NCBI GenBank assembly: GCA_035457485.1
Contig: DATIBO010000006.1
Coordinates: forward strand, 94,134-158,133
Source of the DNA: Candidatus Saccharimonadales bacterium
Lineage (GTDB): Bacteria; Patescibacteriota; Saccharimonadia; Saccharimonadales; EFPC-124
Direction of reading: 5' to 3'
DNA length: 64,000 bases
Shown here: positions 7,039-41,097 of the stretch, piece by piece
Position numbering within the stretch: the stretch's first letter is position 1
Layout: every line of letters begins with the position of its first letter
Position numbers and translations under genes: made by a program
Notes under the pieces: generated by a model
Told to the model about the DNA's origin: nothing
Seen by the model: only the letters and a program-made list of their open reading frames with translations
Databases searched by the model: none

Positions 7039-8385
7039 TTATTCTTCGATAATTTTAGTAACTTTATTAATCAGTTCGTCCAAATCCTGTTGGCTTTTTG
7101 CCTCGGCGTTTAAACGTAAAACCGGCTCAGTGTTACTTGGCCGAACATTAAACCATTTACCTTGATCCTCGTAAGCTACTGTAATTCCATCAAGCAGATC
7201 TTGTGCGCCATCGGTAAAAGTTGCCCGTACTCTTTCAATAACTTGCGGTTTGTTTTCGACCTCAAAGTTTATCTCGGGAGACGACACATATTTATTACGA
7301 TACTTATTCGCCAAATCGCTGAGCTTTTCGCCACTCTCGGCTAAGGCCTGGATAGATAAAATCATGCCAATTAAACCAGAGTCGGTGTAAAAATTATCCT
7401 TAAAGTAAAGATGCGCAGTGTGTTCACCTGCAAAAAGCGCCTTTTGTGTACGCATATCGGCCTTAATGTAGCCAAAGCCCACGCGCGTTCTAAACGGCTT
7501 ACCGCCGGCCGCAACAATTGCATCCCTGGCCGTTTGACCGCAAATTAAGTTATACAAAATTGTTGCCCCCGGATTTTTGCCAAGCAAATATGTTGCCAAA
7601 ATTGCGGTTATCACCTTGCCCGTTACCACCTCGCCTTGCTCATCGAGCATTAAAGCGTGATCGCCGTCAGCATCGAATGCGAATCCAAAATCGCAAGCTT
7701 CGATGCTAATTTTAGCTTTTATTTGAGTTAGATTGTCGCCATTCAACGGATCTGCCGGATGATTTGGAAAACTAGGATCCGGATCAAAATACATTGGAAA
7801 AATTTGCAGAGGCAATTTAGTGGCAATTTTTTGTAAAATTGGGCCGGCTGCCCCATTACCAGTATCTATCGCCACCCTATATTTTGGCCATTTTGTAAGA
7901 TCGGCAAAGCTTAAAACGTGCTCAATCCAATCATCGGCTATATCTTTTTTAATAACTTGCCCAGTCTGAGGAGGCGATACAAACTGATTACTTACCACGA
8001 GATCACGAATATTCATCAAACCCTCGCCCACTCCAATTGGTCGCGCTTGTTCGTGGCAGAACCTTAGACCATTGTATTCTGAGTGAATATGCCCAGATGT
8101 AATCATTGCTCCGCCGGCCAGCCCAAATTTCCCCACGCAAAAGTACATCATGTCAGAGGTGATCTGGCCCAAATCCCAAACATCCCTTCCCTGTTGACGT
8201 ACCCCGTTTATAAAAGCCTCGGCAAGTTGAGCTGAGTCCGTGCGAATATCGCGCCCTACAACAACCGCTCCTGCGGTTGGCAGCCATGTCGCTAGCGCGC
8301 GACCCAGCCGCTCGGCAACTTCGGGGGTTAAATCCTCGCCAACTTTGCCGCGGACATCGTATGCTTTAAAAATGTCTAAATTCAC
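7039..8385 (-). CDS. alpha-D-phosphohexomutase family protein, divergent paralog (phosphomannomutase/phosphoglucomutase-like) with non-canonical catalytic loop
   Basis: Four-domain PGM/PMM architecture; N-term KAYDVRGKVGEDLTPEV; catalytic loop reads ITSGHIHSEYNGLRF instead of SASHNPPEFNG; metal loop FDADGDHA. Confidence 0.7.
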   Translation of the reverse strand: MNLDIFKAYDVRGKVGEDLTPEVAERLGRALATWLPTAGAVVVGRDIRTDSAQLAEAFINGVRQQGRDVWDLGQITSDMMYFCVGKFGLAGGAMITSGHIHSEYNGLRFCHEQARPIGVGEGLMNIRDLVVSNQFVSPPQTGQVIKKDIADDWIEHVLSFADLTKWPKYRVAIDTGNGAAGPILQKIATKLPLQIFPMYFDPDPSFPNHPADPLNGDNLTQIKAKISIEACDFGFAFDADGDHALMLDEQGEVVTGKVITAILATYLLGKNPGATILYNLICGQTARDAIVAAGGKPFRTRVGFGYIKADMRTQKALFAGEHTAHLYFKDNFYTDSGLIGMILSIQALAESGEKLSDLANKYRNKYVSSPEINFEVENKPQVIERVRATFTDGAQDLLDGITVAYEDQGKWFNVRPSNTEPVLRLNAEAKSQQDLDELINKVTKIIEE

Positions 8386-8453
8386 GCCGCGCCCCCTTAA
8401 CTAAGTTCATTATAGGCGCCCTGGCAATAAAATCCAGGGCGCAAAGAGCAAAC

Positions 8454-9881
8454 TTAGTTTAAAGCATCTACGTTTGCGGCAATTTTGTTTTCCCATTCTA
8501 CTTCTGGAAAACTATGCAACAGATCTGACAGATATTTTTTGAGCTTGTCGTAGCCCGGCTGGGTTTTCGACTCAAGCTTAATACCTAGGTACGGGCCATT
8601 CTGCGAGTAGCGCACCACAAACATACTGTCATCCGTTTCAAGCCGTACGCCATCACCTGCGCGCTCGTCGTCAATGATCTCGGCGCTTGGGAAATCTTTT
8701 TTGAGTATTGGCACTAATTTTTCAACCAACTTAACCTTTTTGTCATCAGCACAGGCTAGCTTGATTTCTGGGCTCGAAACATATTGAGGCATAGCCGCCA
8801 CTATTTCGCTAAGTTTTTTACCTGTCTCACTTAGGTAACGGATCAGGCGCAAAGTCGAGAACAACCCATCGTCGTGATTATAAAAATCAGCCGAGAAAAA
8901 GAAGTGGCCAGAAAGCTCTCCAATAAACGCAGCCTTAACCTCTTGGTTCTTCTTTTTTAAGAACGAGTGGCCGGTGCGCCACATAAATGGTTCGCCACCT
9001 TTTGCGGTAATCGTTTCGGGCACTGCCTTTGAGCAAAATGTGTTGAACATAATTTTTGCACCGAGATGATCCATCAGAACCGCTTCGGCAAAAATTGCCA
9101 CAAGCATGTCATTCCAGATTATTCCACCCTTTTCGTCAACAATTCCAATACGATCACCGTCGGCGTCGTATGTAAAGCCAACGTCTGCCTTTGCCTCTAA
9201 CACCTCTTTACTTAGACGATCGAGCACGTGCTTTTCGGTTGGATCAGCTACACCAAGCGGAAAAGTAGGATCCACTTTTGTATTGTATTCAATCACCTCA
9301 CAACCGGCTTGGCGCAAAAGATCTGGCGCAATTCCACCAGCAGTTGTGCAGCTCGGATCGACCACCACACGCAACCCTTTTTTAATTGGTAATCGTTTTA
9401 AAATATCGTCAAAGTAAGCTTGGCGAATATCACGCTGTTCAACCTTGCCTGGTTTTTCTGCCATGTCGTAATCTTCTTCTTGCACCATTCGGCAAAGTTC
9501 GCGCATACCATCGCTCACTAAAGTTTCCGAAAAATCATTGGCAAACTTAAAACCGTTAAATTCCGGCGGATTGTGGCTCGCGCTCACGTAAACGCCACCC
9601 TTGCGATTCAAATAATATTGCGACCAATAAAACGTGCCGATCATATGCATACCAATATCGATCACATCAACACCTGTTGCATTAAGACCCTCGATCAAGC
9701 TGGCGGCATATTCCGGGCTGGTTTGACGACAATCGCGACCAACTACAGCTTCGGTAATCCCTTGTCTTTTTAGGTAGGTTCCAAACGCGCGACCAATATG
9801 CTCGGCAATTTCTGGATTTAAATCTTCGCCCACTAAACCTCTAAGGTCATACCCACGAAACATATGTGGATTAATTTTCAT
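8454..9881 (-). CDS. phosphoglucomutase/phosphomannomutase (alpha-D-phosphohexomutase)
   Basis: Canonical motifs VSASHNPPEFNGFKF (phosphoserine loop), YDADGDRIGIVDEKG (metal loop), GELSGH (sugar loop). Confidence 0.85.
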   Translation of the reverse strand: MKINPHMFRGYDLRGLVGEDLNPEIAEHIGRAFGTYLKRQGITEAVVGRDCRQTSPEYAASLIEGLNATGVDVIDIGMHMIGTFYWSQYYLNRKGGVYVSASHNPPEFNGFKFANDFSETLVSDGMRELCRMVQEEDYDMAEKPGKVEQRDIRQAYFDDILKRLPIKKGLRVVVDPSCTTAGGIAPDLLRQAGCEVIEYNTKVDPTFPLGVADPTEKHVLDRLSKEVLEAKADVGFTYDADGDRIGIVDEKGGIIWNDMLVAIFAEAVLMDHLGAKIMFNTFCSKAVPETITAKGGEPFMWRTGHSFLKKKNQEVKAAFIGELSGHFFFSADFYNHDDGLFSTLRLIRYLSETGKKLSEIVAAMPQYVSSPEIKLACADDKKVKLVEKLVPILKKDFPSAEIIDDERAGDGVRLETDDSMFVVRYSQNGPYLGIKLESKTQPGYDKLKKYLSDLLHSFPEVEWENKIAANVDALN

Positions 9882-9979: not shown

Positions 9980-11008
9980 ATGAACCGGACTTGTTTATCG
10001 CCCCCCAGCGCGCATATACTAAATGTAATGACTAACTGGCAACCTGGTATTCCGGATCAAAAATGGGATGATCAATTATTTAAAAGCGGTGGCGCCTTTA
10101 CGCAAAGCAGCCATTGGGCGGCTGTGCAGGCTGCGCTCGGCAAAAAAACTTTTTATGCAAAAGGTGCCGGATGGCAATGCTTAGCGATTTTAGAACAAGG
10201 TCAGCTTGGCAACCGGATTTACTGCCCTTATGGCCCTCAGGTTTCCTCCCGCTCAGGTTTTGACTTAGCGCTTAGTGCCCTTAAACACTTATCTAAACAA
10301 GAAGAAGTTAGCTATTTTCGTGTAGAGCCCGTTGGAAATCTCACAACTAAACAATTACAGGTCCGGGGATTAAAGCGAGCGCCTAAAGATATACAGCCTC
10401 ACTACACCTGGGTTAAAGATTTAACCAGATCAACTGACGAGCTACTAAGTGAAATGACCAGCACCAACCGTAACTTGTACAACACGGCCGCAAAAAAAGG
10501 TCTAAAATTTAAGCAAAGCAGCTCGGCTGGCGACTTGCCAATATTTTTAGATATGATTCACGAGGTGGCAAAATTAACTGGGATCACCCCGCACAGCGAC
10601 AAAGTATTTCAGGCGATTGCAAGCACTCTGTTGCAGCGCGGTGCAGCTAAGATTTACATCGCCACACACAAAAATGAGCCAGTTGCCAGCGCTTTAGTCT
10701 ACGACAGCCCGACCACGCGTTATTACGCTCATGCCGCCAGCTACCGCGAAGCACGCAAGCTACACCCCGGTAGCCCGCTACTCAGTACCATGATTTTCGA
10801 CGCAAAACAAAACGGCCAGGCCAATTTTGACTTTTTTGGAATCGCTCCACCCAACGAAAAAAACCACAAATGGTCAGGCTTCACGCATTTTAAACAATCT
10901 TTCGGTGGACATATGCGGGAATTTTTGGGAACCTGGGAACTTCCGACTAAACCGCTACACTACGTAGCATATCGCCTAGCGCATAAAGCTAAAGGTTTGT
11001 TAAAATAA
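9980..11008 (+). CDS. FemAB-family (FemX-like) peptidoglycan peptide-bridge aminoacyltransferase, paralog 1
   Basis: ~340 aa, two GNAT-like halves pattern typical of FemABX (aminoacyl-tRNA-dependent) proteins; tandem with paralog 2, 1-nt overlap TAATG. Confidence 0.5.
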   Translation: MNRTCLSPPSAHILNVMTNWQPGIPDQKWDDQLFKSGGAFTQSSHWAAVQAALGKKTFYAKGAGWQCLAILEQGQLGNRIYCPYGPQVSSRSGFDLALSALKHLSKQEEVSYFRVEPVGNLTTKQLQVRGLKRAPKDIQPHYTWVKDLTRSTDELLSEMTSTNRNLYNTAAKKGLKFKQSSSAGDLPIFLDMIHEVAKLTGITPHSDKVFQAIASTLLQRGAAKIYIATHKNEPVASALVYDSPTTRYYAHAASYREARKLHPGSPLLSTMIFDAKQNGQANFDFFGIAPPNEKNHKWSGFTHFKQSFGGHMREFLGTWELPTKPLHYVAYRLAHKAKGLLK

Positions 11009-12036
11009 TGCGTTTTGCTCAAGTTCACGAGTTAGAACACTGGGATGAACTAATTATAGAATCTCCTAACGGCGGTGATGTGTTTCAAACAAAAGCGTTC
11101 GCACAAATCAAACAGTCGCAAGGTTGGATGCCACAATATGTCATTTATGACGTTAAAAACATTGCTTGCCTTTACTTAAGTCGTAAGGTTCCCTTAATTG
11201 GTGAACTTTGGTATTCACCCAAAGGCCCTGGCGCAACAAATGTCACAGACTTTGAGCAAATTTTAAAAGAGAACCAGGAATTTGCTCAAGACAAAAAAAT
11301 TTTTGCTTTTAAAATGGAGCCCGAGATTTTGCAGACAGATGGTTATCCAAAAGATTTACACAAAGTCCATAATATTCAACCTAACGCCAGCACCGTAATT
11401 ATCGATTTATCACCTAACGAAGCTGCTATTTTGGCTACATTCAGGCAACGTGCGCGTCGCGCAATTAGGCAAGCCGAAGCCGCAGGCGTAACGGCCGAAC
11501 CAGTCACCCCAACGCAAGAAAACTTTGAACAAATGTACAAACTTTACAAAGGCACCGGCGAACGAGCTGGGTTCCACGTACGTGACTTCAACTATCACAG
11601 ATCGTTATGGCAAAAATGGATCGACGCCCATCAAGGTCAACTATTTTTTGCATACCACAATAAACAAGTTATTGCCGGCGTTTTTATAGCTTTAATTGGC
11701 AAAAAAGGACTCTACAAAGACGGGGCATCGGATCGCGACGCACTAAAAAGTGGCGCTGCTCATTTATTACAGTGGCGAGTTATGCAGTGGTTAAAATCAA
11801 GGGGCGTAACTAAGTACGACCTCCACGGCACTCCCCCGGCCGATCAGCTAGAAAACACCCAGCACAAGTTTTATGGATTAGGACTTTTTAAAACATCCTT
11901 TAGCAATAGTTTGACCGAATTTGTCGGAACCCTCGATCAGCCAATCAATCAAAATGCCTACAAAGCCTGGTGCAAGCTTGGGGAGCGAGCCAGTCAAAGC
12001 CTAGAATACAGATTTAAAAATAGAACTTTTTACTAA
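11008..12036 (+). CDS. FemAB-family (FemX-like) aminoacyltransferase, paralog 2
   Basis: Same length (342 aa) and architecture as upstream paralog; pattern WYSPKGPG..., KYDLHGTPP similar to FemX family. Confidence 0.5.
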   Translation: MRFAQVHELEHWDELIIESPNGGDVFQTKAFAQIKQSQGWMPQYVIYDVKNIACLYLSRKVPLIGELWYSPKGPGATNVTDFEQILKENQEFAQDKKIFAFKMEPEILQTDGYPKDLHKVHNIQPNASTVIIDLSPNEAAILATFRQRARRAIRQAEAAGVTAEPVTPTQENFEQMYKLYKGTGERAGFHVRDFNYHRSLWQKWIDAHQGQLFFAYHNKQVIAGVFIALIGKKGLYKDGASDRDALKSGAAHLLQWRVMQWLKSRGVTKYDLHGTPPADQLENTQHKFYGLGLFKTSFSNSLTEFVGTLDQPINQNAYKAWCKLGERASQSLEYRFKNRTFY

Positions 12037-12060: not shown

Positions 12061-12948
12061 ATGAGTCCCGAGCGTTCCGAAAACCAGGAAGTTTTTACTG
12101 GAATCGATTTCTTTGCCACCGGTTTTACCGAAATTGCCCAACAACCACACCTAGGTAAAAATGCCAGCGGCCCACACACCGAAGTTATTAGGTCTGTTTT
12201 GAATAAAATTCAAGAAGAGCTCACTCAAATTGACGATCGGCTCGATCCTGGATTTCTTACAAGTCAGGATTATTTTACACCGGACATGCGCGCCTTAAGC
12301 GACACTTTGGCGCTACATAAGCGCGCACAAACATCTGACCTCGCCGGACACAAAGACACGAGTTTAGCGCATGTTTTTAACGAGGCAATTTGGCCTGATT
12401 TACAAAATCAACATATTGATTCGCACCTCCTAGCCGAACCGCCATTTGCCACAATGCGCGGCTTAAATATGCTGTACGATGGAATTGTTGGGATTCGTTC
12501 GTGTGCCAACGCATGCTTTAGGATGGTTTTTGCGGGAGTAACTGGCACGATGCCCGCAGCCCGCAGCGTTGCCTACGGTGCTACACAGGTTTTTGGCGAT
12601 CCCGTGATTGAAAATCATCAGTACTTAAACTTTTTTCACAGCACCGCTTTTAAAAAGTTTTACAAAAAGCGCGTCGCTACTGTTGATATTTTAGGATCAG
12701 ACTTTAGCACCATCGCTAACTTAGCACAGATCGCAAACAAACACGCCGCTAAGTTGTTTTGTATATTGCCTCTAAAATCAACAAACTCCAGCTTAGCTAA
12801 ACATCAGGTAATTTTAACTGGCGTTGCCCAAGATGAAGTTATGTTTACCGATCCGCTAAGCGGTCACAAAAATTTTGCACCAAAACAGCAATTTGCAGAA
12901 CGCTGGGCCCAAGCGCTGAATCAGGCCTTAATTGTGATTGCTTTTTAA
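12061..12948 (+). CDS. hypothetical protein, possible papain-fold C39-like cysteine peptidase
   Basis: Cys in IRSCANACFRMV and downstream His...Asp (HQVILTGVAQDEVMFTDP) resemble the Cys/His/Asp arrangement and the H-x-v-v-l...v-DP motif of peptidase C39 family; weak, motif-level only. Confidence 0.3.
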   Translation: MSPERSENQEVFTGIDFFATGFTEIAQQPHLGKNASGPHTEVIRSVLNKIQEELTQIDDRLDPGFLTSQDYFTPDMRALSDTLALHKRAQTSDLAGHKDTSLAHVFNEAIWPDLQNQHIDSHLLAEPPFATMRGLNMLYDGIVGIRSCANACFRMVFAGVTGTMPAARSVAYGATQVFGDPVIENHQYLNFFHSTAFKKFYKKRVATVDILGSDFSTIANLAQIANKHAAKLFCILPLKSTNSSLAKHQVILTGVAQDEVMFTDPLSGHKNFAPKQQFAERWAQALNQALIVIAF

Positions 12949-13064: not shown

Positions 13065-14360
13065 TCACCGCCCAAGCTTAGCTAACTCTTCCTTCACAAC
13101 CCTGCGGTCATCCCAGTCGATTTTGCCTTCACCCATTCCACGGTAATCTTGATTTCCTAACCCCGGAATCAGCACAATGTCACCCGTTTTGGCCATTTTT
13201 AGCGCTGTCGCAATAGCTTCACGTCGCTCAATAACCTCTTTAAAGTCGATTTTCTTATTAGAGCTTTCTATTCCGCGTCTTATCATTGACCGGATCTTTT
13301 CGGAATCCTCGGTGTAATTTTCGAGTTCCGTTAGAATCACTACGTCAGAATTTTCGGCACATAACTTGCCAATTGGTTCACGTTTGCTTGCGTCACGATC
13401 ACCATCGCAACCAATCACGGTAATCAATCGCTTACCACCTAACCTTTTAACCTCACCAAAGAGTTTTTTAAGCGCGTCGGTTGTATGTGCGTGATCAATT
13501 AATACACTAAAGCCCTGACCTTCGTCGATAAATTGCATGCGGCCAGGAACATTTATCAATGCATTAAAACCCGTCTGGATCGCCTGATCATCCGCATCAT
13601 AAAACCTCGCAACCGTGATAGCCGCCATCGCGTTATAAACATTAAAAAGCCCAGTTAAATGCATTTTGAACTTCGATTTCTTTTCGTCTGTTTCTAAAAC
13701 AAATTCAGCACCTTTCGGATCCAACTTAACGGCAGTCAATTTAGTGTCGGCTAAATCTGCTTTGCCGTAGGTCAAAACGCGCGCGCGACTGGCGCTTTCA
13801 AAAGTATGAAAATATGCGTCGTCGATGTTTAGAACGCTCAGTTTTTTTGCGCGTTTAAATAGCATAGCTTTTGCGGCAGCGTAGTTTTCCATTGTGCCAT
13901 GATAGTCTAGATGGTCTTGAGTCAAGTTGGTCATCACAGCGACATCTACGGGGATTCCCCATACCCGGCCCTGAGTTAGTGCGTGACTGCTGACCTCTAA
14001 AACTAGAGTGTCACAGCCCGCAGCTTTGATCTGGCCAATTAAACTTTGCAGCTTCATACCGCCGGCAGTCGTTAAATGAGTGTCATTTTCATTGATCTCA
14101 CCACCCAAACTGGTTGTAGCTGTGCTCAGCAAGCCAACTTTATAACCGGTAGCAGTTAAAAGCGCAGCAATCATATTGCAAGTTGTAGTTTTACCGTTAG
14201 TCCCAGTTACAGCGATTACATTCATCCCCCATGATGGAAATCCGTGACGAACATTTGCTGCCATTGCTTCCGCATGATGTCGAGGAATCATAACTCTGTT
14301 ATATAAATTTTCTTCTACGTGCGCTCGCGCCCACCTTTTTACCGGTCCAAATGGGTTCAT
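13065..14360 (-). CDS. Mur ligase family protein, MurE-like, lacking the N-terminal UDP-substrate-binding domain
   Basis: P-loop VIAVTGTNGKTTT at residue ~50 (not ~110 as in MurE); DHAHTTDAL (cf. MurE DYAHTPDAL); C-terminal VIGCDGDRD...DVVILTELENYTED MurE-like. Confidence 0.65.
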   Translation of the reverse strand: MNPFGPVKRWARAHVEENLYNRVMIPRHHAEAMAANVRHGFPSWGMNVIAVTGTNGKTTTCNMIAALLTATGYKVGLLSTATTSLGGEINENDTHLTTAGGMKLQSLIGQIKAAGCDTLVLEVSSHALTQGRVWGIPVDVAVMTNLTQDHLDYHGTMENYAAAKAMLFKRAKKLSVLNIDDAYFHTFESASRARVLTYGKADLADTKLTAVKLDPKGAEFVLETDEKKSKFKMHLTGLFNVYNAMAAITVARFYDADDQAIQTGFNALINVPGRMQFIDEGQGFSVLIDHAHTTDALKKLFGEVKRLGGKRLITVIGCDGDRDASKREPIGKLCAENSDVVILTELENYTEDSEKIRSMIRRGIESSNKKIDFKEVIERREAIATALKMAKTGDIVLIPGLGNQDYRGMGEGKIDWDDRRVVKEELAKLGR

Positions 14361-15583
14361 AATAAATCCTCAAAAACTTTTTTATCACTCCACTTTTTGC
14401 GCTTTTCGCCGTGTTGACGGTATTGGCGTGCACTGTAACCACAAACAACAATAATGTCGCCACGACGTGCAATGTTGATCGCTTTTTCTAGCGCCTCTGC
14501 TCGATCTGGGACTTCTTCAATACTAGCATCGCCAGCAGATCGGCTTGCTCCCTCGAGTAATTGCGCCCTGACAGATTCCGGGGCCTCCGTTGACAAATAA
14601 TCACCGTCAGTAACAATTACGCGACCAGAGTGACTCGCCGCCACTTCGCCAACTGCACCACGCCAAGATGTTGGTTGCCCCAAGGACGCGCTTAAAACTG
14701 TGATTATTCGATTTTTGGCAAAGTGCTTAATACTTTCTAAAACTTCGTTGACCCCGCTTGGAGAAACTGAACTATCGAGGACTATCTGGTAAGGTCGTTC
14801 TGTTACAACATATTCCGCCGCGCCAGGCTGAACCGCAAGCTTAAAGACGCCCTCTTCAATTGTTTCCAGCGGAGCATGAATCATATATGCTGCGGCTGCA
14901 GCCGCCGTTAAGCTGTAGATTGCCTGCTTAGTCGTAAGTTTGCATGTTAATGAAATTCGGGTCTGTGTATCAAAGCTCAAATTAATCTCGCAACCTTTAG
15001 GGTGCATTTTAACGCCTTCGATTCGAGCCTCTGCTCGATCACTTGTCCCGTAACTTAATACTTTTTCTGACCCAACATGCTTAGCGATCTCGTTGTAACC
15101 GCTGTCGTCACTTGGCAAAATTATGTTGCCACTGACCTTTCCAGCTAATTGTCGCAGCTGCTCAATATTTGCTGCGAGCGCAACTTGGTCAAGATGCTCA
15201 TCGGTGATTCTCCTAACAACCAAGGTTGAAATCGGTAAGGACGTAAAACCATGATCTGGTAAAAATTGCGGCAGCTGCAAAATTGCAAAATTACATTTTG
15301 CGCGTTTAATTTGAGCTAAAAGTTCCTGCAGCCTAAATGCATCTTCAATTGGCTGGGCCTGGTCACTGCCGCTCGCTCGTTCGTTTGCGATCTCAACGTA
15401 GTCAGCGCTAATCACACCAACTCGTTCACCGGAAGTTTTTAAAATTTCGGTCAAAGCCGCGATGGTAACGTCGGCTCCATCTACCCCATACACACCAATG
15501 ACGTGTAGTTTTTTCCCAGGCATCCCATGACGTAAAGCCGCAGCATGAGCACTGATTTTAGAAGTAAGCTTATTTGGCGACAC
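14357..15583 (-). CDS. Mur ligase family paralog with degenerate ATP-binding motifs (probable non-catalytic MurE-like protein)
   Basis: P-loop position reads IGVYGVDGADVT (GTNGKTT degraded); DYAH motif replaced by DSSVSPSG; C-terminal ITVLSASLGQ...RVIVTDGDYLSTEAPE retains MurE-like pattern; ATGA overlap with downstream ligase. Confidence 0.5.
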   Translation of the reverse strand: MSPNKLTSKISAHAAALRHGMPGKKLHVIGVYGVDGADVTIAALTEILKTSGERVGVISADYVEIANERASGSDQAQPIEDAFRLQELLAQIKRAKCNFAILQLPQFLPDHGFTSLPISTLVVRRITDEHLDQVALAANIEQLRQLAGKVSGNIILPSDDSGYNEIAKHVGSEKVLSYGTSDRAEARIEGVKMHPKGCEINLSFDTQTRISLTCKLTTKQAIYSLTAAAAAAYMIHAPLETIEEGVFKLAVQPGAAEYVVTERPYQIVLDSSVSPSGVNEVLESIKHFAKNRIITVLSASLGQPTSWRGAVGEVAASHSGRVIVTDGDYLSTEAPESVRAQLLEGASRSAGDASIEEVPDRAEALEKAINIARRGDIIVVCGYSARQYRQHGEKRKKWSDKKVFEDLL

Positions 15584-15709: not shown

Positions 15710-16261
15710 ATGTCAACACTCGAAAAACCAGGGTATAACCCAAATTCACAAAAACAACCTAAAAGAAAGGGCTTAGGCGCGCGTTTCATGGGAATGTTCG
15801 GCGGGCCAAGAACCAATGAAGGTCCACAGCCTACCGACGAAGAATTATATGGTCCAACTCCTGAGCATTTAAAAACTGATGCAGAACGAGCGAAGGACGC
15901 GAAAGATGCAGAAGTAAGAGACTTGCACGCGGAAGGGACAGCCAAAAGAGTCACAGAAACTTATCAAAATCCAAGAAGCTGGTACAACAGGGGTATTGAT
16001 AGCGCTAATGAATACAAAAAACTGGCTGTTGATGCCACTTACGAAGGAGACATCAACAAAGCCGTGGATTACACTAAAACCATGCGCGAACATCAAAACC
16101 AGGCTATTAAAGAAGTGGAAAACCAGATGGATAGCCCATACAGCACTGGTCACTCTCAAGTTGGCAAGCAAGAAGTTATGGATAAATTACATGAACACGC
16201 GCTAAAGCAAGCCGAACAAGAGGGCGTCGACATTAAAACACCAGACGACAGCGAAAAATAA
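15710..16261 (+). CDS. hypothetical K/E-rich protein
   Basis: ORF preceded by plausible sigma70-like promoter (TTGACT-17-TTAAAAT) and followed by intrinsic terminator; no domain recognised. Confidence 0.4.
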   Translation: MSTLEKPGYNPNSQKQPKRKGLGARFMGMFGGPRTNEGPQPTDEELYGPTPEHLKTDAERAKDAKDAEVRDLHAEGTAKRVTETYQNPRSWYNRGIDSANEYKKLAVDATYEGDINKAVDYTKTMREHQNQAIKEVENQMDSPYSTGHSQVGKQEVMDKLHEHALKQAEQEGVDIKTPDDSEK

Positions 16262-22481: not shown

Positions 22482-22632
22482 CCCTACCTCCCGTAGTAAC
22501 GTGCAGCCTCGAGTTCACGAGGCCATAATAAAGCAAGAAAATGCACTCTTATCACTCCGCAAACTGTCAAACTATAACATAATTAATTGTTTTCTTCAAT
22601 TCATCGCTTATCTGTTATAATGTGTTCGGCGC

Positions 22633-22724
22633 GGAGAGGTGTCCGAGTGGTTGAAGGTGCCGCTCTCGAAAAGCGGTGTAGCCAGCAATGGTTACCGAGG
22701 GTTCGAATCCCTCCTTCTCCGCCA
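22633..22724 (+). tRNA. tRNA-Ser (anticodon CGA), type II with long variable arm, CCA encoded
   Basis: Acceptor GGAGAGG/CCTCTCC, anticodon stem CCGCT/AGCGG with loop CTCGAAA, T-arm GAGGG-TTCGAAT-CCCTC, 3' GCCA. Confidence 0.88.
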
Positions 22725-22784
22725 ATAGGTAGTCAGTGTAAAAGCTGGCTATTTATTTTGCCCACAAAACCGTACAATAGCTAT

Positions 22785-23816
22785 ATGGATTTTTTACGCG
22801 CCACTCTTCGCGCATTGTTTGTTGTTATAACTTCGGCCAGCTTAGCCACACTAATCAGCGTGGCGACAATGCAGGCAACGATTTTAAACCGCTCGACAGT
22901 TTTGCGTTGGATGGAGAATAGTGGAATTTATCAAAACATCGTTAACATAGCAGTGCAGCTCCAACCTGATTCAGCACCAGAGAGTCAGCAGTTTTTGGGC
23001 GAAACTACCATTCGCGATGCAATTAATCAAACTCTAGATCCAGCTTTCTTAAGAACTTCAACCGAAAAAATTATTAATAGTACTTACGATTGGTTAGAAG
23101 GCAAGAGCGAAACAATCACGTTTTCGATTCCATTAAGCGAAAAACGCGATCTTTTAAAGCAAAATTTAGCCAAGCAAATCGAACCCAAAATTTCGAGCCT
23201 TCCAACCTGTAGCTCAAATTTTAGCGGTGTAACTAGTCAGCAAGTCCAATGTATTCCTAAAAACTCCAATGCCCAAACTTATGCCGCCGATCTTGCGAGC
23301 CGAGCGGTGGATAGTTCTGACTTTTTAGTGCAGCCCCTAACCCAGCAAAATATTCAGCTGCCAACGCTCCCAGCTGTTAACGTTTTACGATTTTTGGCAA
23401 GCAATTTACAGATCATAATCTCCGGACTAGCTGTCCTGGCGGTTCTAAGCGCAACGGGTTATGTTTTGTTGAGTAAAGATAAACTTCGCGGCATTCAAGC
23501 TGTGGGTCGACGTGCTTTTTTTGGTACTTTAATTTTAGTCATTGGCGGTGGAGTTCTTTGGTATTTCTCGAACAAGCTAACTCTAAGTGCATTCGGCGAT
23601 CAAGCAATTATCACCAGCATAGTTGATCCGTTAGCACGACAAATTGCTGCAGATGTTGGAATGTGGTTATTCATTTTTAGCGGAATTGTTTTTGCAACCG
23701 GTGGTTTGATCTGGCTTGGTGCATTTTTGACAATCAAAAATCTAGAGAAAAAACTAAAAGCCGCACATGCTGGCCCGCCGAAAGATTTGCCGCCAATCGG
23801 TCCCGCTGCTATATAA
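22785..23816 (+). CDS. hypothetical polytopic membrane protein. The track start at 22587 overlaps the tRNA; ATG 22785 is preferred
   Basis: N-terminal TM, large extracytoplasmic region, three C-terminal TM helices. Confidence 0.45.
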   Translation: MDFLRATLRALFVVITSASLATLISVATMQATILNRSTVLRWMENSGIYQNIVNIAVQLQPDSAPESQQFLGETTIRDAINQTLDPAFLRTSTEKIINSTYDWLEGKSETITFSIPLSEKRDLLKQNLAKQIEPKISSLPTCSSNFSGVTSQQVQCIPKNSNAQTYAADLASRAVDSSDFLVQPLTQQNIQLPTLPAVNVLRFLASNLQIIISGLAVLAVLSATGYVLLSKDKLRGIQAVGRRAFFGTLILVIGGGVLWYFSNKLTLSAFGDQAIITSIVDPLARQIAADVGMWLFIFSGIVFATGGLIWLGAFLTIKNLEKKLKAAHAGPPKDLPPIGPAAI

Positions 23817-30950: not shown

Positions 30951-32273
30951 ATGAGTCGGACAATTAAATTAGTAGGGCGGTTTTTGTTCTTTGTCGCAAT
31001 AACTCTCGCGGCGAACTTCACACTCCAAGCCACCTCTGCGCACGCAGAAGGCACGATTAGCGGTGGTAATTTTTGCGTAGAAGTAACATTAGGCGACGGT
31101 GAAAAAGCCTGCGCCGTAATCGAGGATGACTTGATAGAAGTTACACTCGATCCAGCCGCAGCCGGCAGCAGTCAAACTATAGATAACGGCAAAATCGATA
31201 TCACAAACGTGCCACGCGGTACCTACACAGTAACTGTCCAATTTGAGCTCACAAAAGAGCTCTGCAGCTCAGTGACTAGTATTATTGGGGATATCATTCC
31301 AATTTCACGAATTATCGACGTTATCACTGGCGGCTTTAACCCAGTAGATACGGTTCTGAGCGCCCGTCTATGTGACAATGACGGCGTTTACCGCGCAAGC
31401 AGAGTTTTTTCTAACGTAAGAGTAGAGGACGGCCAGACCACGTTTTTAATGGGAGACAATAACACAGATAACAGGGTGTTGGCACATGCCATCAGGGTTG
31501 ATCCCGAAACTGGCTTGCCCGTAATTGTCTGTGCGGGCGAAAGCAACTTATTTGTTGACTGGGTTATTTGTCCGGCGATCGAATTCACATTTAGAGCAAT
31601 AGACTTAGCAATTACCTACATTTTAGTGCCTTTTTTGAGCATTAATCCGCTCACAGTCACCACTGTTAACGATCAAGGGCAGACGGTTCAAACCGAGCTC
31701 TATCAGATCTGGGACAACGTCAGAAATGCAACCAATATTTTGTTCATTTTGGTTTTCTTTGTAATGATCTTTTGGCAGGCAATTGGTAGTGTTTATGGTG
31801 TTAAAAAAATTCTTCCGCGGCTTATTCTTATGGCAATCGCAGCAAACTTGTCGTTCTTTATTTGTCAAATAATGATCGATATTTCTAACGTTCTAGGCAT
31901 TGGAATTGCTTCATTACTAACAGCTGCCATTATCGGCGACCAGCCTGTCCTTGACCTTAGCGGAATCATTGCGCCGTTATTTGGGGCATCGGTGCCTATA
32001 CTTGTTGCACTCTTTATTATGATTATTTTCTCTGCGGTTATGATCATAATTGGTGTGCTTGTACTTATTTTCCGACAAATTGTGCTTATATTCTTAGTTC
32101 TAATTTCGCCGGTGGCTTTTGCCGCGGGGGTTTTGCCGAACACCGCCAATTTGCTAAACCAATGGTTCAATATGTTGATTCGACTAGTCTTAATGTACCC
32201 AATTTGTATGTTGATTCTTTCGGCTGCCAGAATAGCTGGTCATATCATAACTAACATAGGAGCACAGTTCTAA
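30951..32273 (+). CDS. VirB6/TrbL-like polytopic T4SS membrane protein
   Basis: Signal peptide, ~200-aa extracytoplasmic domain, then 5-6 TM helices with a long hydrophobic core; first gene of operon. Confidence 0.5.
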   Translation: MSRTIKLVGRFLFFVAITLAANFTLQATSAHAEGTISGGNFCVEVTLGDGEKACAVIEDDLIEVTLDPAAAGSSQTIDNGKIDITNVPRGTYTVTVQFELTKELCSSVTSIIGDIIPISRIIDVITGGFNPVDTVLSARLCDNDGVYRASRVFSNVRVEDGQTTFLMGDNNTDNRVLAHAIRVDPETGLPVIVCAGESNLFVDWVICPAIEFTFRAIDLAITYILVPFLSINPLTVTTVNDQGQTVQTELYQIWDNVRNATNILFILVFFVMIFWQAIGSVYGVKKILPRLILMAIAANLSFFICQIMIDISNVLGIGIASLLTAAIIGDQPVLDLSGIIAPLFGASVPILVALFIMIIFSAVMIIIGVLVLIFRQIVLIFLVLISPVAFAAGVLPNTANLLNQWFNMLIRLVLMYPICMLILSAARIAGHIITNIGAQF

Positions 32274-33532
32274 TGGATTTTATGTTTGACATACTGAATC
32301 ATTTTGCGACAGGCAACGTTATATCTGAGGTTGCACAAAGCTCGATGTTCGCTGCGGCAGGTTTTATAGTTACGGCTGCTGGAATTGGTGGGTTTGCATT
32401 TTCTTTTGGAGCCGCGGACAAAGCCACCAAAGCCATGTACCAGGCAGGGATGAGTGGAGTAAAAAGAGTTGGCAAAATCGGGGCTGGTGCTGCTAAATTT
32501 GGTGCCAAAGAAGCCGTTCGTAACTCTCGCCCAATGCAAGCTTGGCAAGAAGCCAAACGCGAAAAAGCCTTCGCAAGGAAAGGTCGTGCACAGAGAGATT
32601 ACGCAGCCGCATCTTCGAGCGACTCTCTACTGGGTCGAGCATTGCGCGCCTACACCTTTGGTGCTGGTGATAAGAACTTGGCTTTCGCGCAACAAGGTAT
32701 GGTTCGCGACATGCGTGACCGCTCGACAGAGCTTGGATCAACAATTGGCCACATGAACCCGTCAAATCTTAAAGCTCACTTATCCAGTATTGCTAGAGGT
32801 GGCGCTGGAACTGGCATGGACAGTGAGTTGAACGCAGCCGGCATAACATTCAGAGGTCACGGAGCTGCAGCTTCGTCGCTTGCAGTTATGAATCACTTAG
32901 CACAAACAGGTGATCTAAACGAAGACATCATGTCTTACTTAACCGACTCATACTCAGACAATGATAAGCAAGGCACCCCTAAACTCGAGCAAGCAAGATT
33001 GTCCTACTGGTCTGGTCAAGTTCAGGCCGCCCAGCGTGCTGCGGGTGCAAACGGCAACCCATCTATGCTAAAAAACACCGTCGATATTTCTATGGGACCT
33101 CTTGGCACATACACTGCGAGCTACAAGTCGAACGTTGGCGACACCCTAAAGAAGGTTACTGCCGAAAGCTACAAGGGTATGAGTGGCGATGGTGTGGAGT
33201 CTACTGCACGCGCCGTAATGACTCAGGCTCCGAAAGCCACACCAGGCACACCTGGCTTTGTTCCTGGCGCAGTTACATTCCCAGTAAAGACCGTGACCAT
33301 GAAAAAATACAACCCCACAACTGGGGCAACAGAAAGCTTCCCACTCACTCGTTTCGTTGACGACGGGCTACATGAGCTTGCCACAGCTTATGTCCAGGGT
33401 GAAGTTAACGGCACAAGCGCAGCCTACAAAGATCAAGGTGCCCGCGAAAAACTTAATAGCCTGCTTAACGCTAATCCGGCATTTAAAGCACAGCTTGATC
33501 AAATGGTTACTGAGCGCGAACCTCACATGTAG
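32273..33532 (+). CDS. hypothetical T4SS-associated bitopic protein
   Basis: N-terminal TM (AAAGFIVTAAGIGGFAFSF) then ~370-aa soluble domain; translationally coupled (TAATG). Confidence 0.4.
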   Translation: MDFMFDILNHFATGNVISEVAQSSMFAAAGFIVTAAGIGGFAFSFGAADKATKAMYQAGMSGVKRVGKIGAGAAKFGAKEAVRNSRPMQAWQEAKREKAFARKGRAQRDYAAASSSDSLLGRALRAYTFGAGDKNLAFAQQGMVRDMRDRSTELGSTIGHMNPSNLKAHLSSIARGGAGTGMDSELNAAGITFRGHGAAASSLAVMNHLAQTGDLNEDIMSYLTDSYSDNDKQGTPKLEQARLSYWSGQVQAAQRAAGANGNPSMLKNTVDISMGPLGTYTASYKSNVGDTLKKVTAESYKGMSGDGVESTARAVMTQAPKATPGTPGFVPGAVTFPVKTVTMKKYNPTTGATESFPLTRFVDDGLHELATAYVQGEVNGTSAAYKDQGAREKLNSLLNANPAFKAQLDQMVTEREPHM

Positions 33533-33538
33533 GAATCC

Positions 33539-34384
33539 ATGGCCACTTATAAAGTACCTCAAGATGTTGAAGCCGAAGATAAGCTACTTGGACCTTTTAG
33601 CTTTAGACAGTTTGTCTATTTAGCAATTGCTCTTGGGGCAGCAGTAATCGCTTTCTTTTTGTTCAGGGTTTTTCCGCTTTTGTTTTTAATCCCGCTACCT
33701 ATAACCATTTTCTTTGGCGCTTTGGCTTTGCCACTACGAAAAGATCAGCCAATGGAAACATACTTATTGGCCATTGTGAGATTTAATCTAAAACCAAAGC
33801 TTCGTAAGTGGGATCCAGAGGGTGTAATTAGTTATGTAGAAATAATCGCGCCAAAGTTAATGGAGAAACAGCTTACAAAAGAATACGGCGCGGATTCGGC
33901 TCAAGAACGCTTAGACTATCTTGCGCGCGTTATGGACAGTCGTGGTTGGGCTCATAAAGGTGTGGAAACAACCACAAATCCAAGCGTAACTGCAACAGTA
34001 GCGGCCGAAGCTAGATCGACAGTTGATGTCCTAGACGAAGACCAGGCGTTGTCGCGAACCTTTAAGGAGCTTATGGACCAAAAAGCAGAAGAGCAAAGGC
34101 AGGCGGCGATTGAAATGATGAAAAAAGCGCAAACCGAACCCGCTCTGGCAACTCCGGTGAATATAAACTACAACCCTTACCCAACTTCAATGCATCAAAA
34201 AGTTATTCTGCCTGCCGGACAACAAAAGCCCGCACCTGTTGCGCAAAAACCTGCGATGACACCGCCAGTATCACCTGATATAATTAGACTCGCGAACAGC
34301 AATCTGAAGGTGAGTACAATTGCACACGAAATCCAGAAGCTTGAACTTAATAAGGGTGCAGTAGTAGATATTAAACTTCATTAA
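33539..34384 (+). CDS. VirB3/PrgI-like small membrane domain with C-terminal extension
   Basis: N-terminal ~90 aa: charged lead-in then two TM helices (FVYLAIALGAAVIAFFLF / LLFLIPLPITIFFGALAL), position directly upstream of VirB4 as in many T4SS. Confidence 0.35.
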   Translation: MATYKVPQDVEAEDKLLGPFSFRQFVYLAIALGAAVIAFFLFRVFPLLFLIPLPITIFFGALALPLRKDQPMETYLLAIVRFNLKPKLRKWDPEGVISYVEIIAPKLMEKQLTKEYGADSAQERLDYLARVMDSRGWAHKGVETTTNPSVTATVAAEARSTVDVLDEDQALSRTFKELMDQKAEEQRQAAIEMMKKAQTEPALATPVNINYNPYPTSMHQKVILPAGQQKPAPVAQKPAMTPPVSPDIIRLANSNLKVSTIAHEIQKLELNKGAVVDIKLH

Positions 34385-34406
34385 AAATACAGGGAGGGCT
34401 GGTTAA

Positions 34407-35285
34407 ATGCCACCCAACAATCAACAGACAGCTAATCAACAACCGGTTAATGCAACCCTCCCACAGGGTGCTTCACCTTTAGCGGCTCTTCCGCCAACTC
34501 CGGCGGGCAACATCGTGGCAGGTGGCTCACCCCAGGTAGCAAGTACGGGTAACAAACAAAAAAATCCGAATAGCGCGCAAAACAGCTTGCTCATCTCTGA
34601 ACTTCGCGATGGAATGGCCATATTAAACGATGGCACTATGCGCGCTGTAATTGCTTGCCGTTCGATTAACTTTGATCTTATGAGCTCACGCGAACGCGAA
34701 GCAGTTGAATTTTCTTATCAGCAGTTCTTAAACTCACTTTACTTTCCAATGCAAATATTTGTTCGATCCCAAAAAGTCGACATCGGCCCGTATCTTGAAC
34801 GCTTGGGTAAAATTCGCCGCGAACAAGACAACATGCTCCTTGGTGTTTTAATGGACGATTATGTCGACTTTATTGGTATTCTTGCGCAAGAAACCAACAT
34901 TATGGAAAAGAGCTTCTTTATAATAGTGCCTTACTACCCGGGCGGCGATGTTGGAAGCGCAGTCAATACTAGTAAGAACTTTTTAGCAAACTTGTTTTCA
35001 CCGCAGACCCAGCAGCGAATCAGAATCGACGAAAAAACTTATGCAAAAGCTGTCGATGAGCTTCGCAATCGCACCGATACGGTCATAAACGGACTGCTTC
35101 AAATTGGAATCCGTGCCGTCCGATTAAACACAAAAGAGCTAGGCGAACTATACTACAATGTCTACAACCCAGACACAGCTGTGCGCGAACCACTAGGTAA
35201 GTTCGAAAACCTAACTAGTGCTGCAGTCGTTACCAAGGGCGAAGGCAAAGCTCCGCAACCACACTTAGATAAGGAGGCGATGTAA
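34407..35285 (+). CDS. VirB4 N-terminal domain encoded as separate ORF (Q/P-rich disordered lead + VirB4 N-domain)
   Basis: Segment ELRDGMAILNDGTMRAVIACRSINFDLMSSREREAVEFSYQQFLNSLYFPMQIFVRSQKVD matches the N-terminal domain pattern of Gram-positive VirB4 (TrsE/PrgJ/TcpF); SD GGGAGGG upstream. Confidence 0.5.
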   Translation: MPPNNQQTANQQPVNATLPQGASPLAALPPTPAGNIVAGGSPQVASTGNKQKNPNSAQNSLLISELRDGMAILNDGTMRAVIACRSINFDLMSSREREAVEFSYQQFLNSLYFPMQIFVRSQKVDIGPYLERLGKIRREQDNMLLGVLMDDYVDFIGILAQETNIMEKSFFIIVPYYPGGDVGSAVNTSKNFLANLFSPQTQQRIRIDEKTYAKAVDELRNRTDTVINGLLQIGIRAVRLNTKELGELYYNVYNPDTAVREPLGKFENLTSAAVVTKGEGKAPQPHLDKEAM

Positions 35286-35286
35286 T

Positions 35287-37182
35287 ATGGCATTCGGTAA
35301 AAAACCTGATCCAATTGACTTAGCCCAAGCTCAACGCTACCGCGAGCAACAAGAAATCGAGCAAGAATTTTTGCGCGGTATAACAACTCTGCGCGACATC
35401 ATCGCGCCAAGCTCACTCGAAATCCAGAGTGGCTACTTTAGGCTTGGCACAAAATACGCTCGCACACTTTACGTTTATGGCTACCCGCGTCAAATCTTTA
35501 CTGGCTGGCTAAGTCCGATCATCAATATCGACGAAGTTATAGATGTAAGCATGTTTGTTTATCCAGTTGAAAGCCAGGTAGTTTTAAACAATTTGCGCAA
35601 AAAAGTAGGCCAGCTAGAAGCCAGTATTAGCATTAACGCTGAGCGCGGTAAGGTGCGCGATCCGGGCCTACAGGCTGCTATCCAAGACGCCGAGGAACTG
35701 CGTGACCAACTGCAAGTTGGTGCTGAACGCTTTTTTAGGTTTGGCTTGTATATTACAGTTTACGGTGACAGTTTAGATGAGCTGCAGTTTGTGCAACATA
35801 AGATCGAAACAATTCTAGGTCAGCAATTAGTGTTCAGTAAGGTTGCTAGCAGTCAAATGGAGCAAGGAATGAACAGTACGATTCCGCAAATGACCGACCA
35901 GCTACAGATTCGCCACAACATGAATACGGGCGCACTTAGCACAAGTTTTCCGTTTACAAGTGCCGACCTCACCCAAGAAAAAGGTGTGCTTTATGGAATC
36001 AACATGCATAATAACGGCCTTGTGATTTTTGATCGATTCAGTTTAGAGAACGCCAACATGGTGGTGTTTGCAAAATCTGGTGCCGGTAAATCTTTTGCGG
36101 TCAAGCTAGAGGCTTTGCGTAGCTTAATGATGGGTACCGAAGTAATTATCGTAGACCCAGAAAACGAATATCAGCGACTTTGCGATGCGGTAGGCGGAAG
36201 TTATGTTAATCTAAGTTTAAACTCGACCACTCGAATAAATCCATTTGATCTACCAAAAGTAGTTGAAAGCGAAGAGGCCGAGGACGCTCTACGTGCCAAT
36301 CTAATTAACTTACACGGGCTTTTGCGACTTATGATGGGTGGCGCACAAATGTTACCTGGTGGCGTAACTTTGCCAGCGCTCAGCCCAGTAGAAGAAGCTG
36401 ATCTTGATCAAGCTCTGATCGATACCTATGCCCGAGCAGGAATCACGAGCGACCCATTAACTCATACCGGGCAGCCGCCAACAATCAACGATCTTTACGA
36501 GACGCTATTACATATGGGCGGGAGTGGTCCGCAACTTGCACAACGGTTGCGAAAATATACAACTGGAACATTTGCCGGTATCTTTAGTCAGCAATCAAAT
36601 GTGGACATCAACAATAAAATGGTTGTTTTTAGCATCCGAGACCTAGAAGACGAGCTTCGCCCGGTTGCAATGTATATCGTTTTGAGCTACATCTGGAATA
36701 AAACACGCGCCGAGCGACGCAAGCGTTTATTAGTAGTTGATGAGGCTTGGCAGCTAATGAAATATGAAGACTCGGCAAACTTCTTATTCAGCCTCGCTAA
36801 GCGCGCAAGAAAATACTTTTTGGGTATGACCACCATAACTCAGGACGTTGAAGACTTTATGACCAGTAAAATGGGTCGTGCAATTGTGGCGAATGCCAGT
36901 ATGCAAATTCTACTTAAACAGTCCACTTCGGCAGTTGACGTTTTGGCGGATGTGTTTAAGCTAACCGAAGAAGAAAAAAAGCGTTTGGCTCAATTCCCGG
37001 TAGGGCAGGGGTTGTTCTTTGCCGGACCAAATCATGTGCACTTACAGATTATTGCTAGCCCAACTGAGACCGGCTTGATTACAACCAATCCTCAGCAGCT
37101 TCAACAGTTACAACAGCTTTATGCACAGCAACCTAACCCACAGCAACCAATACCAGGTCAAGGAGTAGAAGGTGCCCTATAA
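35287..37182 (+). CDS. virB4: VirB4/TraE-family T4SS ATPase (C-terminal ATPase portion)
   Basis: Walker A AKSGAGKSFAV, Walker B LLVVDEAWQLM, motif ITQDVEDF; SD AAGGAGG 11 nt upstream of ATG; starts 1 nt after stop of upstream N-domain ORF, different frame. Confidence 0.8.
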   Translation: MAFGKKPDPIDLAQAQRYREQQEIEQEFLRGITTLRDIIAPSSLEIQSGYFRLGTKYARTLYVYGYPRQIFTGWLSPIINIDEVIDVSMFVYPVESQVVLNNLRKKVGQLEASISINAERGKVRDPGLQAAIQDAEELRDQLQVGAERFFRFGLYITVYGDSLDELQFVQHKIETILGQQLVFSKVASSQMEQGMNSTIPQMTDQLQIRHNMNTGALSTSFPFTSADLTQEKGVLYGINMHNNGLVIFDRFSLENANMVVFAKSGAGKSFAVKLEALRSLMMGTEVIIVDPENEYQRLCDAVGGSYVNLSLNSTTRINPFDLPKVVESEEAEDALRANLINLHGLLRLMMGGAQMLPGGVTLPALSPVEEADLDQALIDTYARAGITSDPLTHTGQPPTINDLYETLLHMGGSGPQLAQRLRKYTTGTFAGIFSQQSNVDINNKMVVFSIRDLEDELRPVAMYIVLSYIWNKTRAERRKRLLVVDEAWQLMKYEDSANFLFSLAKRARKYFLGMTTITQDVEDFMTSKMGRAIVANASMQILLKQSTSAVDVLADVFKLTEEEKKRLAQFPVGQGLFFAGPNHVHLQIIASPTETGLITTNPQQLQQLQQLYAQQPNPQQPIPGQGVEGAL

Positions 37183-41094: not shown

Positions 41095-41097
41095 AAA

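Follow-up and report, generated by a model that had tools for sequence, protein, structure and literature searches.

A predicted non-catalytic MurE paralogue, very probably maintained by selection, is encoded beside an intact short MurE in Saccharimonadales

Two MurE-like genes lie in tandem on the minus strand of a 64-kb stretch of contig DATIBO010000006.1 from a Candidatus Saccharimonadales bacterium (hereafter the window, meaning the whole 64,000 nucleotides analysed). The downstream gene, DOWN, encodes what we consider with good confidence to be a bona fide MurE, although of a short form devoid of the N-terminal domain 1. The upstream gene, UP, encodes a paralogue which, judging from its sequence, is incapable of the ATP and acyl-phosphate chemistry of Mur ligases, yet its conservation across a family of homologues indicates that it is very probably a dead but selected pseudo-enzyme. 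Regarding its role, we lean towards UP being a selectively maintained non-catalytic component of stem-peptide assembly beside the working MurE encoded by DOWN.

UP (408 aa, GTG start) and DOWN (431 aa) are collinear paralogues, 26% identical over 398 aa with 4 gaps (E=1e-47). The ATGA overlap between them, reported in a first-pass annotation of this DNA, is real, and equivalent 4-bp overlaps were found in three loci, the window, L006 and L008. The same annotation held that both ligases lack the N-terminal domain 1, and on this point Pfam, NCBIfam, Protein Data Bank (PDB) alignments and AlphaFold2 (AF2) models agreed. The Pfam matches of both proteins were exclusively Mur_ligase_M and Mur_ligase_C (PF02875, C-terminal), with no match to the uridine-binding domain 1 (PF01225); alignment to the NCBIfam MurE model NF001126 began at position 87 (DOWN) or 86 (UP) of its 486 positions, and PDB MurE chains aligned only from chain residue ~86-94 onward. 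The AF2 models, of predicted local distance difference test (pLDDT) 90.4 and predicted template modelling score (pTM) 0.90 for UP and pLDDT 89.3 for DOWN, show two N-terminal helices followed by strand 1 and the P-loop, without an alpha/beta domain 1. An overlooked domain 1 due to a wrong start call, which the annotation had itself named as a refuter, was ruled out, because reading back in frame from the start one meets a stop after 3 codons in DOWN and after 29 codons in UP, and the gap between UP and the next gene, on the opposite strand, measures only ~126 nt. We also considered that domain 1 might be encoded by a separate neighbouring gene, but the open reading frame (ORF) at 15710-16261 had no Pfam match and consisted of low-complexity helical sequence, and this candidate was rejected. 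No further Mur ligases were found in the 64-kb window, indicating that the dcw cluster is located elsewhere in the genome.

The loss of catalytic residues in UP was established by a column-by-column comparison of 40 UP-family members with 40 short MurEs. In DOWN numbering, the family-wide losses affect K57, T58, T59, H150, Y153/H154, K164, N240/N243, R274, H292, G320-D323 and K326. Seen by motif, the family has lost the SSH of EVSSH, the TN and the H...YH of TNLTxDHLDYH, the Arg of PGR, the carbamylated Lys, both adenine-site Asn, the DxAH His, and GDRD together with the next Lys, the roles of these residues being assigned after PMC3829189 and general Mur-ligase knowledge. The equivalent of the Mg-binding Glu is kept in 90% of the family and is a Gln in the UP of the window. 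UP scored below the MurE cut-offs (NF001126, 153.8 vs 373 bits; TIGR01085, 127 vs 257.3) and matched no Pfam or NCBIfam family outside Mur ligases, while the best fold matches of its AF2 model were ligand-bound MurE structures (TMq 0.84-0.86), with PAP11 second and CphA lower. The motifs quoted for both copies in the first-pass annotation were recovered by translation at equivalent positions, and its proposal that the upstream copy is non-catalytic was upheld by every sequence criterion and throughout the family (40 sequences). The possibility, which it had also raised, that the degenerate copy fits some other intact family better was checked as well, and MurE remained the best match of UP both in sequence and in fold.

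The UP family comprises ~42 full-length homologues of 407-418 aa sharing 41-78% identity, and an alignment of 40 sequences gave a mean column identity of 63% with 43 invariant columns. As the proportion of synonymous differences (pS) was saturated (0.74-0.88), a proper dN/dS could not be derived and the proportions of non-synonymous differences (pN) were compared instead. Across four genomes, pN ranged from 0.21 to 0.32 for UP, from 0.15 to 0.24 for the active neighbour and from 0.19 to 0.23 for valyl-tRNA synthetase (ValRS), the non-synonymous divergence of UP being ~1.3-1.5 times that of its active neighbour. About 10 columns of the former active site have been refixed in the family (N→D35, N→S73, TN→R124R125, F→Q220, Q→R263, A→G277, G→L301 and K→W307); at the position of R124/R125, T144/N145 are present in 100% of the active short MurEs. 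When UP and its active partner were compared within the same genome, UP was less conserved at the catalytic motifs but more conserved at residues 55-95 (which include GSDQA), 182-212, 228-247, 278-297 and 359-378 (which include ARRGD). As far as sequences can tell, this is the conservation pattern of a remodelled site or surface that is still used, and not that of decay. UP is thus an enzyme homologue with its fold retained, its catalytic residues lost and purifying selection acting on it, which is the operational definition of a pseudo-enzyme. Because two invariant Arg replace the TN beside the site of the reacting carboxylate and the gamma-phosphate, the UP cleft would bind something anionic. 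Binding of tRNA or another nucleic acid, considered in view of the many conserved Arg, is not favoured, the family being mildly acidic.

DOWN, in turn, scored above the NCBIfam MurE cut-offs (NF001126 equivalog, 384.3 vs 373 bits; TIGR01085 subfamily, 382.2 vs 257.3). Its best PDB sequence match was the Lys-adding MurE of T. maritima (4bub, 223 bits), and the best fold matches of its AF2 model were the MurE structures 8g6p, 4bub and 2wtz (TMq 0.86-0.87). It carries the whole MurC-F motif set, consisting of GxxGK(T/S), the Mg Glu, TNxxxDHxD(Y/F)H, the carbamylated Lys, the adenine Asn, DxAH and G(D/G)RD, and none of the catalytic columns varies among 40 short MurEs; within the P-loop region, T52, G53, T54, N55, G56, K57, T59 and T60 are invariant and T58 is present in at least 90%. 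The putative carbamylated Lys was assigned by reference to K219, the carbamylated Lys of S. aureus MurE (PMC3829189). DOWN would accordingly be predicted to catalyse the ATP-dependent addition of residue 3 to UDP-MurNAc-L-Ala-D-Glu. As to the nature of that residue, the meso-diaminopimelate (mDAP) motif DNPR, whose Asn and Arg contact the distal carboxylate of mDAP (PMC3829189), was not found in DOWN, which reads LENY at this position, nor in the short-MurE family, whose pattern is x-E-x-Y (E347 invariant, Y349 90%), and the mDAP-binding Arg is absent, a Tyr standing in its place. The x-E-x-Y motif and the adjacent FemAB genes suggest a residue 3 of the Lys/Orn type rather than mDAP.

Absence of domain 1 is not peculiar to this pair. 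The best 120 database relatives of DOWN all lacked PF01225 and measured 397-488 aa, with two further rows being fragments, and several of these short relatives are encoded on contigs of 0.5-1.3 Mb. In related genomes (L001, L009), one short MurE is the only MurE-like gene at the conserved locus and is accompanied by one FemAB gene; the synteny conserved in relatives runs ValRS, a small ORF and/or TsaD, MurE, FemAB, in some cases a phosphohexomutase, and GroES/EL. The short domain-1-less form is, by these comparisons, the usual predicted MurE of Saccharibacteria, and since the loss of domain 1 is common to the bona fide MurE of the lineage, it provides no argument for a non-nucleotide substrate.

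The UP family was found to be rare. A profile search of 1.84 billion representatives retrieved four full-length UP-family cluster representatives and three family-type fragments, the score falling from 534 bits for the last full-length member to 306 bits for the best intact MurE. Among 185,579 GTDB species representatives the family was present in 10, all of them Saccharibacteria bar one probably mis-binned 4.5-kb contig; these 10 loci were obtained with an alignment-based query, and the UP sequence used as single query gave none. UP therefore appears to found a small family limited to Saccharimonadales. Locus L016 (DATLJN010000082.1, 4,489 bp), titled as a metagenome-assembled genome of Magnetospirillaceae, carries a Saccharibacteria-type dead MurE with a convergent FemAB gene and is probably a binning contamination.

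The linkage between the dead and the intact copy extends to the family as a whole. In 16 out of 16 informative loci, those whose contig allowed a judgement, the dead copy lies next to an intact short MurE and in the same orientation. Two arrangements were distinguished. In type I loci (window, L006-8, L015) the order is dead copy, active copy and two FemAB genes, the FemAB count applying where the contig reaches far enough (L015 ends earlier). In type II loci (L003-5, L010-14, L017-19) the active copy precedes the dead one, which is followed by a single convergent FemAB gene and sits where L001 has its single MurE; one FemAB gene is likewise found in single-MurE loci. L004 is type II by gene order but groups with type I organisms by ValRS. 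Scores against a hidden Markov model (HMM) of the UP family were highest for the single resident MurEs of the P0149/P0043 type (400-420 bits; 33-40% identity to the family), followed by type II neighbours (~308 bits; 27-33%) and type I neighbours (~207-231 bits; 22-27%). With any other short MurE, the type I active copies share only 40-45% identity, compared with 58-73% for ValRS. In a neighbour-joining tree of 112 sequences the UP family branched off below all short MurEs, with a long branch of its own; this basal placement is a probable case of long-branch attraction, and the affinity of UP to the P0149/P0043-type MurE was judged by the HMM scores and identities and not by the tree. From these distances we infer that a resident MurE would have acquired a second copy, after which one copy lost catalysis, and that in the lineage of the window the active copy was later replaced or strongly diverged and the FemAB gene duplicated.

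At L020, a partly degenerate MurE (P0185, 6001-7305) with the P-loop GADGRTVT lies upstream of a short MurE (7461-8768) and shares 41% identity with P0149, a single resident MurE, and 31-32% with the dead family, which suggests that the process of catalytic loss is recurrent or has been caught midway. The 7461-8768 gene, in a Saccharibacteria-type locus, has an intact P-loop, with DFAS at the DxAH and GRRD at the GDRD position. At L010, a Mur-ligase-like fragment (7219-7941; 94 bits with the short-MurE HMM) directly follows the dead copy and may be the remnant of a further duplication.

Several explanations of the pair other than the one we lean towards had to be weighed. That UP is a decaying pseudogene, a functionless relic of recent duplication, is hardly credible: the loss of all catalytic motifs would fit it, as would the existence in another genome of the partly degenerate P0185, but ~42 homologues, some as little as 41% identical, have kept an open frame of constant length (407-418 aa), 43 columns are invariant, pN is near the ValRS level with saturated pS, and the AF2 model is confident (pLDDT 90), so that the conservation data effectively refute this reading. 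We also regard it as improbable that UP is still an enzyme, be it a ligase with a non-canonical nucleotide site or a protein whose remodelled cleft catalyses some other reaction that needs no ATP. The new residues fixed at old active-site positions (R124, R125, D35, S73, R263, W307) could be taken in that sense, as could the Mg-binding Glu equivalent present in 90% of the family (Gln in the UP of the window), but all the conserved ATP and acyl-phosphate machinery has gone together, family-wide, and Pfam and NCBIfam match nothing but Mur ligases. The Mur-family enzymes without domain 1 that have been characterised (MurT, FolC, CapB and the M domain of CphA) use non-UDP substrates, and the first-pass annotation had reasoned that the missing domain implies, as in MurT, a non-nucleotide substrate, lipid-linked or peptide, on which UP and DOWN would act as a heterodimeric ligase with UP as its adaptor. 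The domain 1 that both of our proteins lack does hold the uridine pocket in S. aureus MurE, but only that pocket, most of the substrate contacts being made by domain 2 (PMC3829189). This part of the annotation was not supported, and we consider such a substrate very doubtful, given that DOWN exceeds the MurE equivalog cut-off and that the short form is general in Saccharibacteria, being the sole MurE-like gene at the conserved locus of relatives. Moreover, with the MurT model NF052464 (cut-off 800 bits) DOWN reached a score of 53.5 and UP was unmatched at E <= 0.01, MurT structures were absent from the top 50 fold matches of either protein, and no GatD-type or ATP-grasp gene flanks the pair. 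CphA models gave 71-147 bits against cut-offs of 850-877, the Mur-like module alone being aligned, without ATP-grasp; the structural comparison with MurE, MurT and CphA that the annotation had recommended left MurE as the best fold for both UP and DOWN.

The main rival is a role unrelated to MurE, in which UP is a MurE repurposed for a structural or regulatory function of its own and its adjacency to DOWN is a legacy of tandem duplication. We see this as unlikely, although it has real points in its favour: the dead family persists across two gene orders and two lineages of active neighbours, its new invariant residues and the regions more conserved than in the enzyme denote a new constraint, and chains of PAP11 rank high among the matches in sequence and in fold, this MurE-like plant protein being a precedent as a structural subunit of the plastid RNA polymerase (PMC11561172). 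It has to account, however, for 16/16 informative loci in which the copies are adjacent and co-oriented across ~40-50% divergence of the dead copy, for the start/stop overlap in three loci, and for a locus otherwise made of wall-precursor genes (FemAB, GlmM-like mutases). According to the interpretation towards which we lean, namely a non-catalytic component of stem-peptide assembly, UP would be a folded two-domain MurE-like protein, descended from the resident MurE lineage and kept by purifying selection, which would be co-transcribed with the active ligase, and translationally coupled to it in the window, and would act with MurE and the stem-peptide machinery as a ligand- or partner-binding regulator, adaptor or scaffold for the MurE and/or the FemAB step. 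A physical complex of UP and DOWN is plausible because of their constant adjacency, the 4-bp overlap in three loci and the opposite character of the two families (UP family acidic, pI 6.8, net charge -2.6; short MurEs basic, pI 8.6, net +6), but we hold such a partnership to be possible rather than probable. A bolder version, in which UP is an obligate non-catalytic subunit whose Arg-lined cleft binds a UDP-MurNAc-peptide or amino acid and hands it to DOWN or FemAB, setting substrate recognition or stem-peptide chemistry in the clade, seems unlikely to us. Several observations weigh against a component working with MurE. Most short MurEs have no UP-like partner, which is therefore not needed for short-MurE activity in general, and the characterised MurC-F enzymes are generally regarded as stand-alone. 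The order of the dead and active genes is reversed between type I and type II, and the low identity of the type I active neighbour relative to ValRS implies that the dead copy persisted while its neighbour changed. Such a history is as compatible with an independent role as with a partnership; the neighbour lineage differing between the arrangements, a tightly co-evolved obligate pair is not favoured.

The positions of the pair, of its motifs and of the neighbouring FemAB genes are collected in Table 1.

Table 1 Features of the UP/DOWN pair and of the FemAB tandem in the window
Feature	Position	Strand	Basis or remark
UP, catalytically dead MurE paralogue (predicted) without domain 1, 408 aa	14357..15583	-	family alignment, fold
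DOWN, short MurE without domain 1, 431 aa	13065..14360	-	catalytic motifs intact, above MurE cut-offs
ATGA overlap	14357..14360	-	UP stop and DOWN start shared; GAGGA 6 nt upstream of DOWN ATG
UP P-loop remnant GVDGADVT	15464..15487	-	family G-x-D-G-x-x-x-T, never Lys
UP GSDQA loop, replacing the TT(P/A) substrate loop	15356..15370	-	G72, S73 invariant; D74, Q75, A76 at least 90%
UP R124-R125, replacing Thr-Asn of TNxxxDH	15209..15214	-	R124 in 100%, R125 in 95% of family
UP DSSVSPSG, replacing DHAHTTDA	14753..14776	-	His lost; D270, G277 invariant
UP SASLGQP, replacing GCDGDRD	14672..14692	-	L301 invariant; W307 follows where Lys stood
UP ARRGD, C-terminal domain	14456..14470	-	A372, R373, R374, G375, D376 invariant
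DOWN P-loop GTNGKTTT	14181..14204	-	translation
DOWN TNLTQDHLDYHG motif, Mg2+/substrate His region	13896..13931	-	translation and family comparison
DOWN putative carbamylated Lys K164	13869-13871	-	role by S. aureus MurE K219 (PMC3829189)
DOWN DHAHTTDAL	13470..13496	-	D289, A291, H292, T293, D295, A296 invariant in short MurEs
DOWN GCDGDRD	13392..13412	-	translation and short-MurE alignment
DOWN LENY, at DNPR/DNPA specificity-motif position	13314..13325	-	aligns to DDPR of 4bub
Two tandem FemAB-family transferase genes, 342 aa each	9980-11008, 11008-12036	+	PF02388, E=2e-30 and 8e-27

The pair is flanked by FemAB, a 295-aa ORF, a small ORF and TsaD, and the FemAB tandem is convergent with the ligase genes. 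The 295-aa ORF (12061-12948, plus strand), between the FemAB pair and MurE, had no Pfam match and a faint match of C39-peptidase type (E=0.0056); L006-L008 carry other genes at this place. Two adjoining phosphohexomutase genes (phosphoglucomutase/phosphomannomutase, GlmM-like) are found on the minus strand at 7039-8385 and 8454-9881, with similar doublets in L004 and L005. Farther away, a co-oriented block on the plus strand (30951-42300) contains a TraG/VirB4-like P-loop ATPase (35287-37182), an M23 peptidase (39817-41094) and several large ORFs without Pfam matches, and has the appearance of a type IV secretion system or a conjugation-like apparatus. The 5' end of a 409-aa ORF with a TTG start (22587-23816, plus strand) overlaps a tRNA-Ser (22633-22724), for which reason its real start is probably further downstream.

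Other degenerate Mur-like proteins were noticed in the profile search. P0299 (L021, 6001-7512), P0273 and P0322 are long-form MurE-like proteins of ~500 aa with a degenerate P-loop (e.g. GTIGQHQT) and without DHLDYH, DxAH and GDRD; the place of murE in a dcw cluster is taken by P0299 (mraZ, rsmH, ftsL-like, ftsI, P0299, murF, mraY, murD ... ftsW). Dead MurE-like genes may thus be recurrent outside Saccharibacteria. P0190, P0210 and P0257 are short Mur-ligase-like proteins of 394-457 aa in which GK(T/S) is kept and DHLDYH, DxAH and GDRD are missing.

Neither a dead MurE paralogue nor a domain-1-less MurE was found described in the searchable literature on MurE and Mur ligases in connection with Saccharibacteria, the candidate phyla radiation (CPR), pseudoenzymes and inactive paralogues. 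By score and motif the UP family is not MurE, nor is it MurT or CphA, and it represents what we would describe as a hitherto undescribed pseudo-enzyme offshoot of the Mur ligases. Public records label its members 'MurE', 'Mur ligase family protein' or, for two of them, 'cyanophycin synthetase', the last of these names being an annotation artefact. Textbooks present Mur ligases as enzymes that work alone, and they are targets of antibiotics; with a selected dead MurE always encoded next to an active one, the cytoplasmic synthesis of peptidoglycan would gain a further layer, be it of regulation or of adaptors. If UP were an obligate subunit, the pair would be the first case of a Mur ligase under the control of a paralogous pseudo-ligase; UP would also be a bacterial counterpart of plant PAP11. 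Independently of UP, a standard MurE without the uridine-binding domain in Saccharibacteria raises the question of how the nucleotide substrate is recognised.

Among known systems, the closest to both proteins are the MurE enzymes themselves (4BUB, T. maritima; 4C12, S. aureus; 1E8C, E. coli), whose middle and C-terminal domains are the best match of UP and DOWN but which have the domain 1, with its uridine pocket, that these lack. DOWN departs from them further in carrying x-E-x-Y for DNPR/DNPA and GLGNQ for GKGHE, and UP in retaining no catalytic residue and scoring far under the cut-offs. MurT-GatD resembles the pair in that a Mur-family protein without domain 1 forms a heteromer with a partner encoded next door; MurT is, however, active and has a DUF1727 C-terminal domain, and its partner is a glutaminase instead of a dead paralogue. 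The M domain of CphA is also a Mur-ligase-like module without domain 1, although CphA has in addition an ATP-grasp and an N domain, and its fold TM-scores were lower than those of MurE. In the MurE-MurF fusion of Bordetella (8F5D), which appeared among the fold matches, Mur ligases are joined in one assembly, but both halves are active, catalyse consecutive steps and belong to one chain. PAP11, which ranked first among PDB sequences with the dead-family profile and second among the folds matched by UP, puts the MurE fold to a non-peptidoglycan role; unlike UP, it is eukaryotic, has an intact P-loop, domain 1 and extra C-terminal inserts, and is not paired with an active MurE. Degenerate LytM factors (EnvC/NlpD) activate cell-wall amidases and offer a conceptual analogy: paralogues of cell-wall enzymes that are themselves dead, they have been kept to regulate the active ones, although they have another fold, are periplasmic and act on hydrolases.

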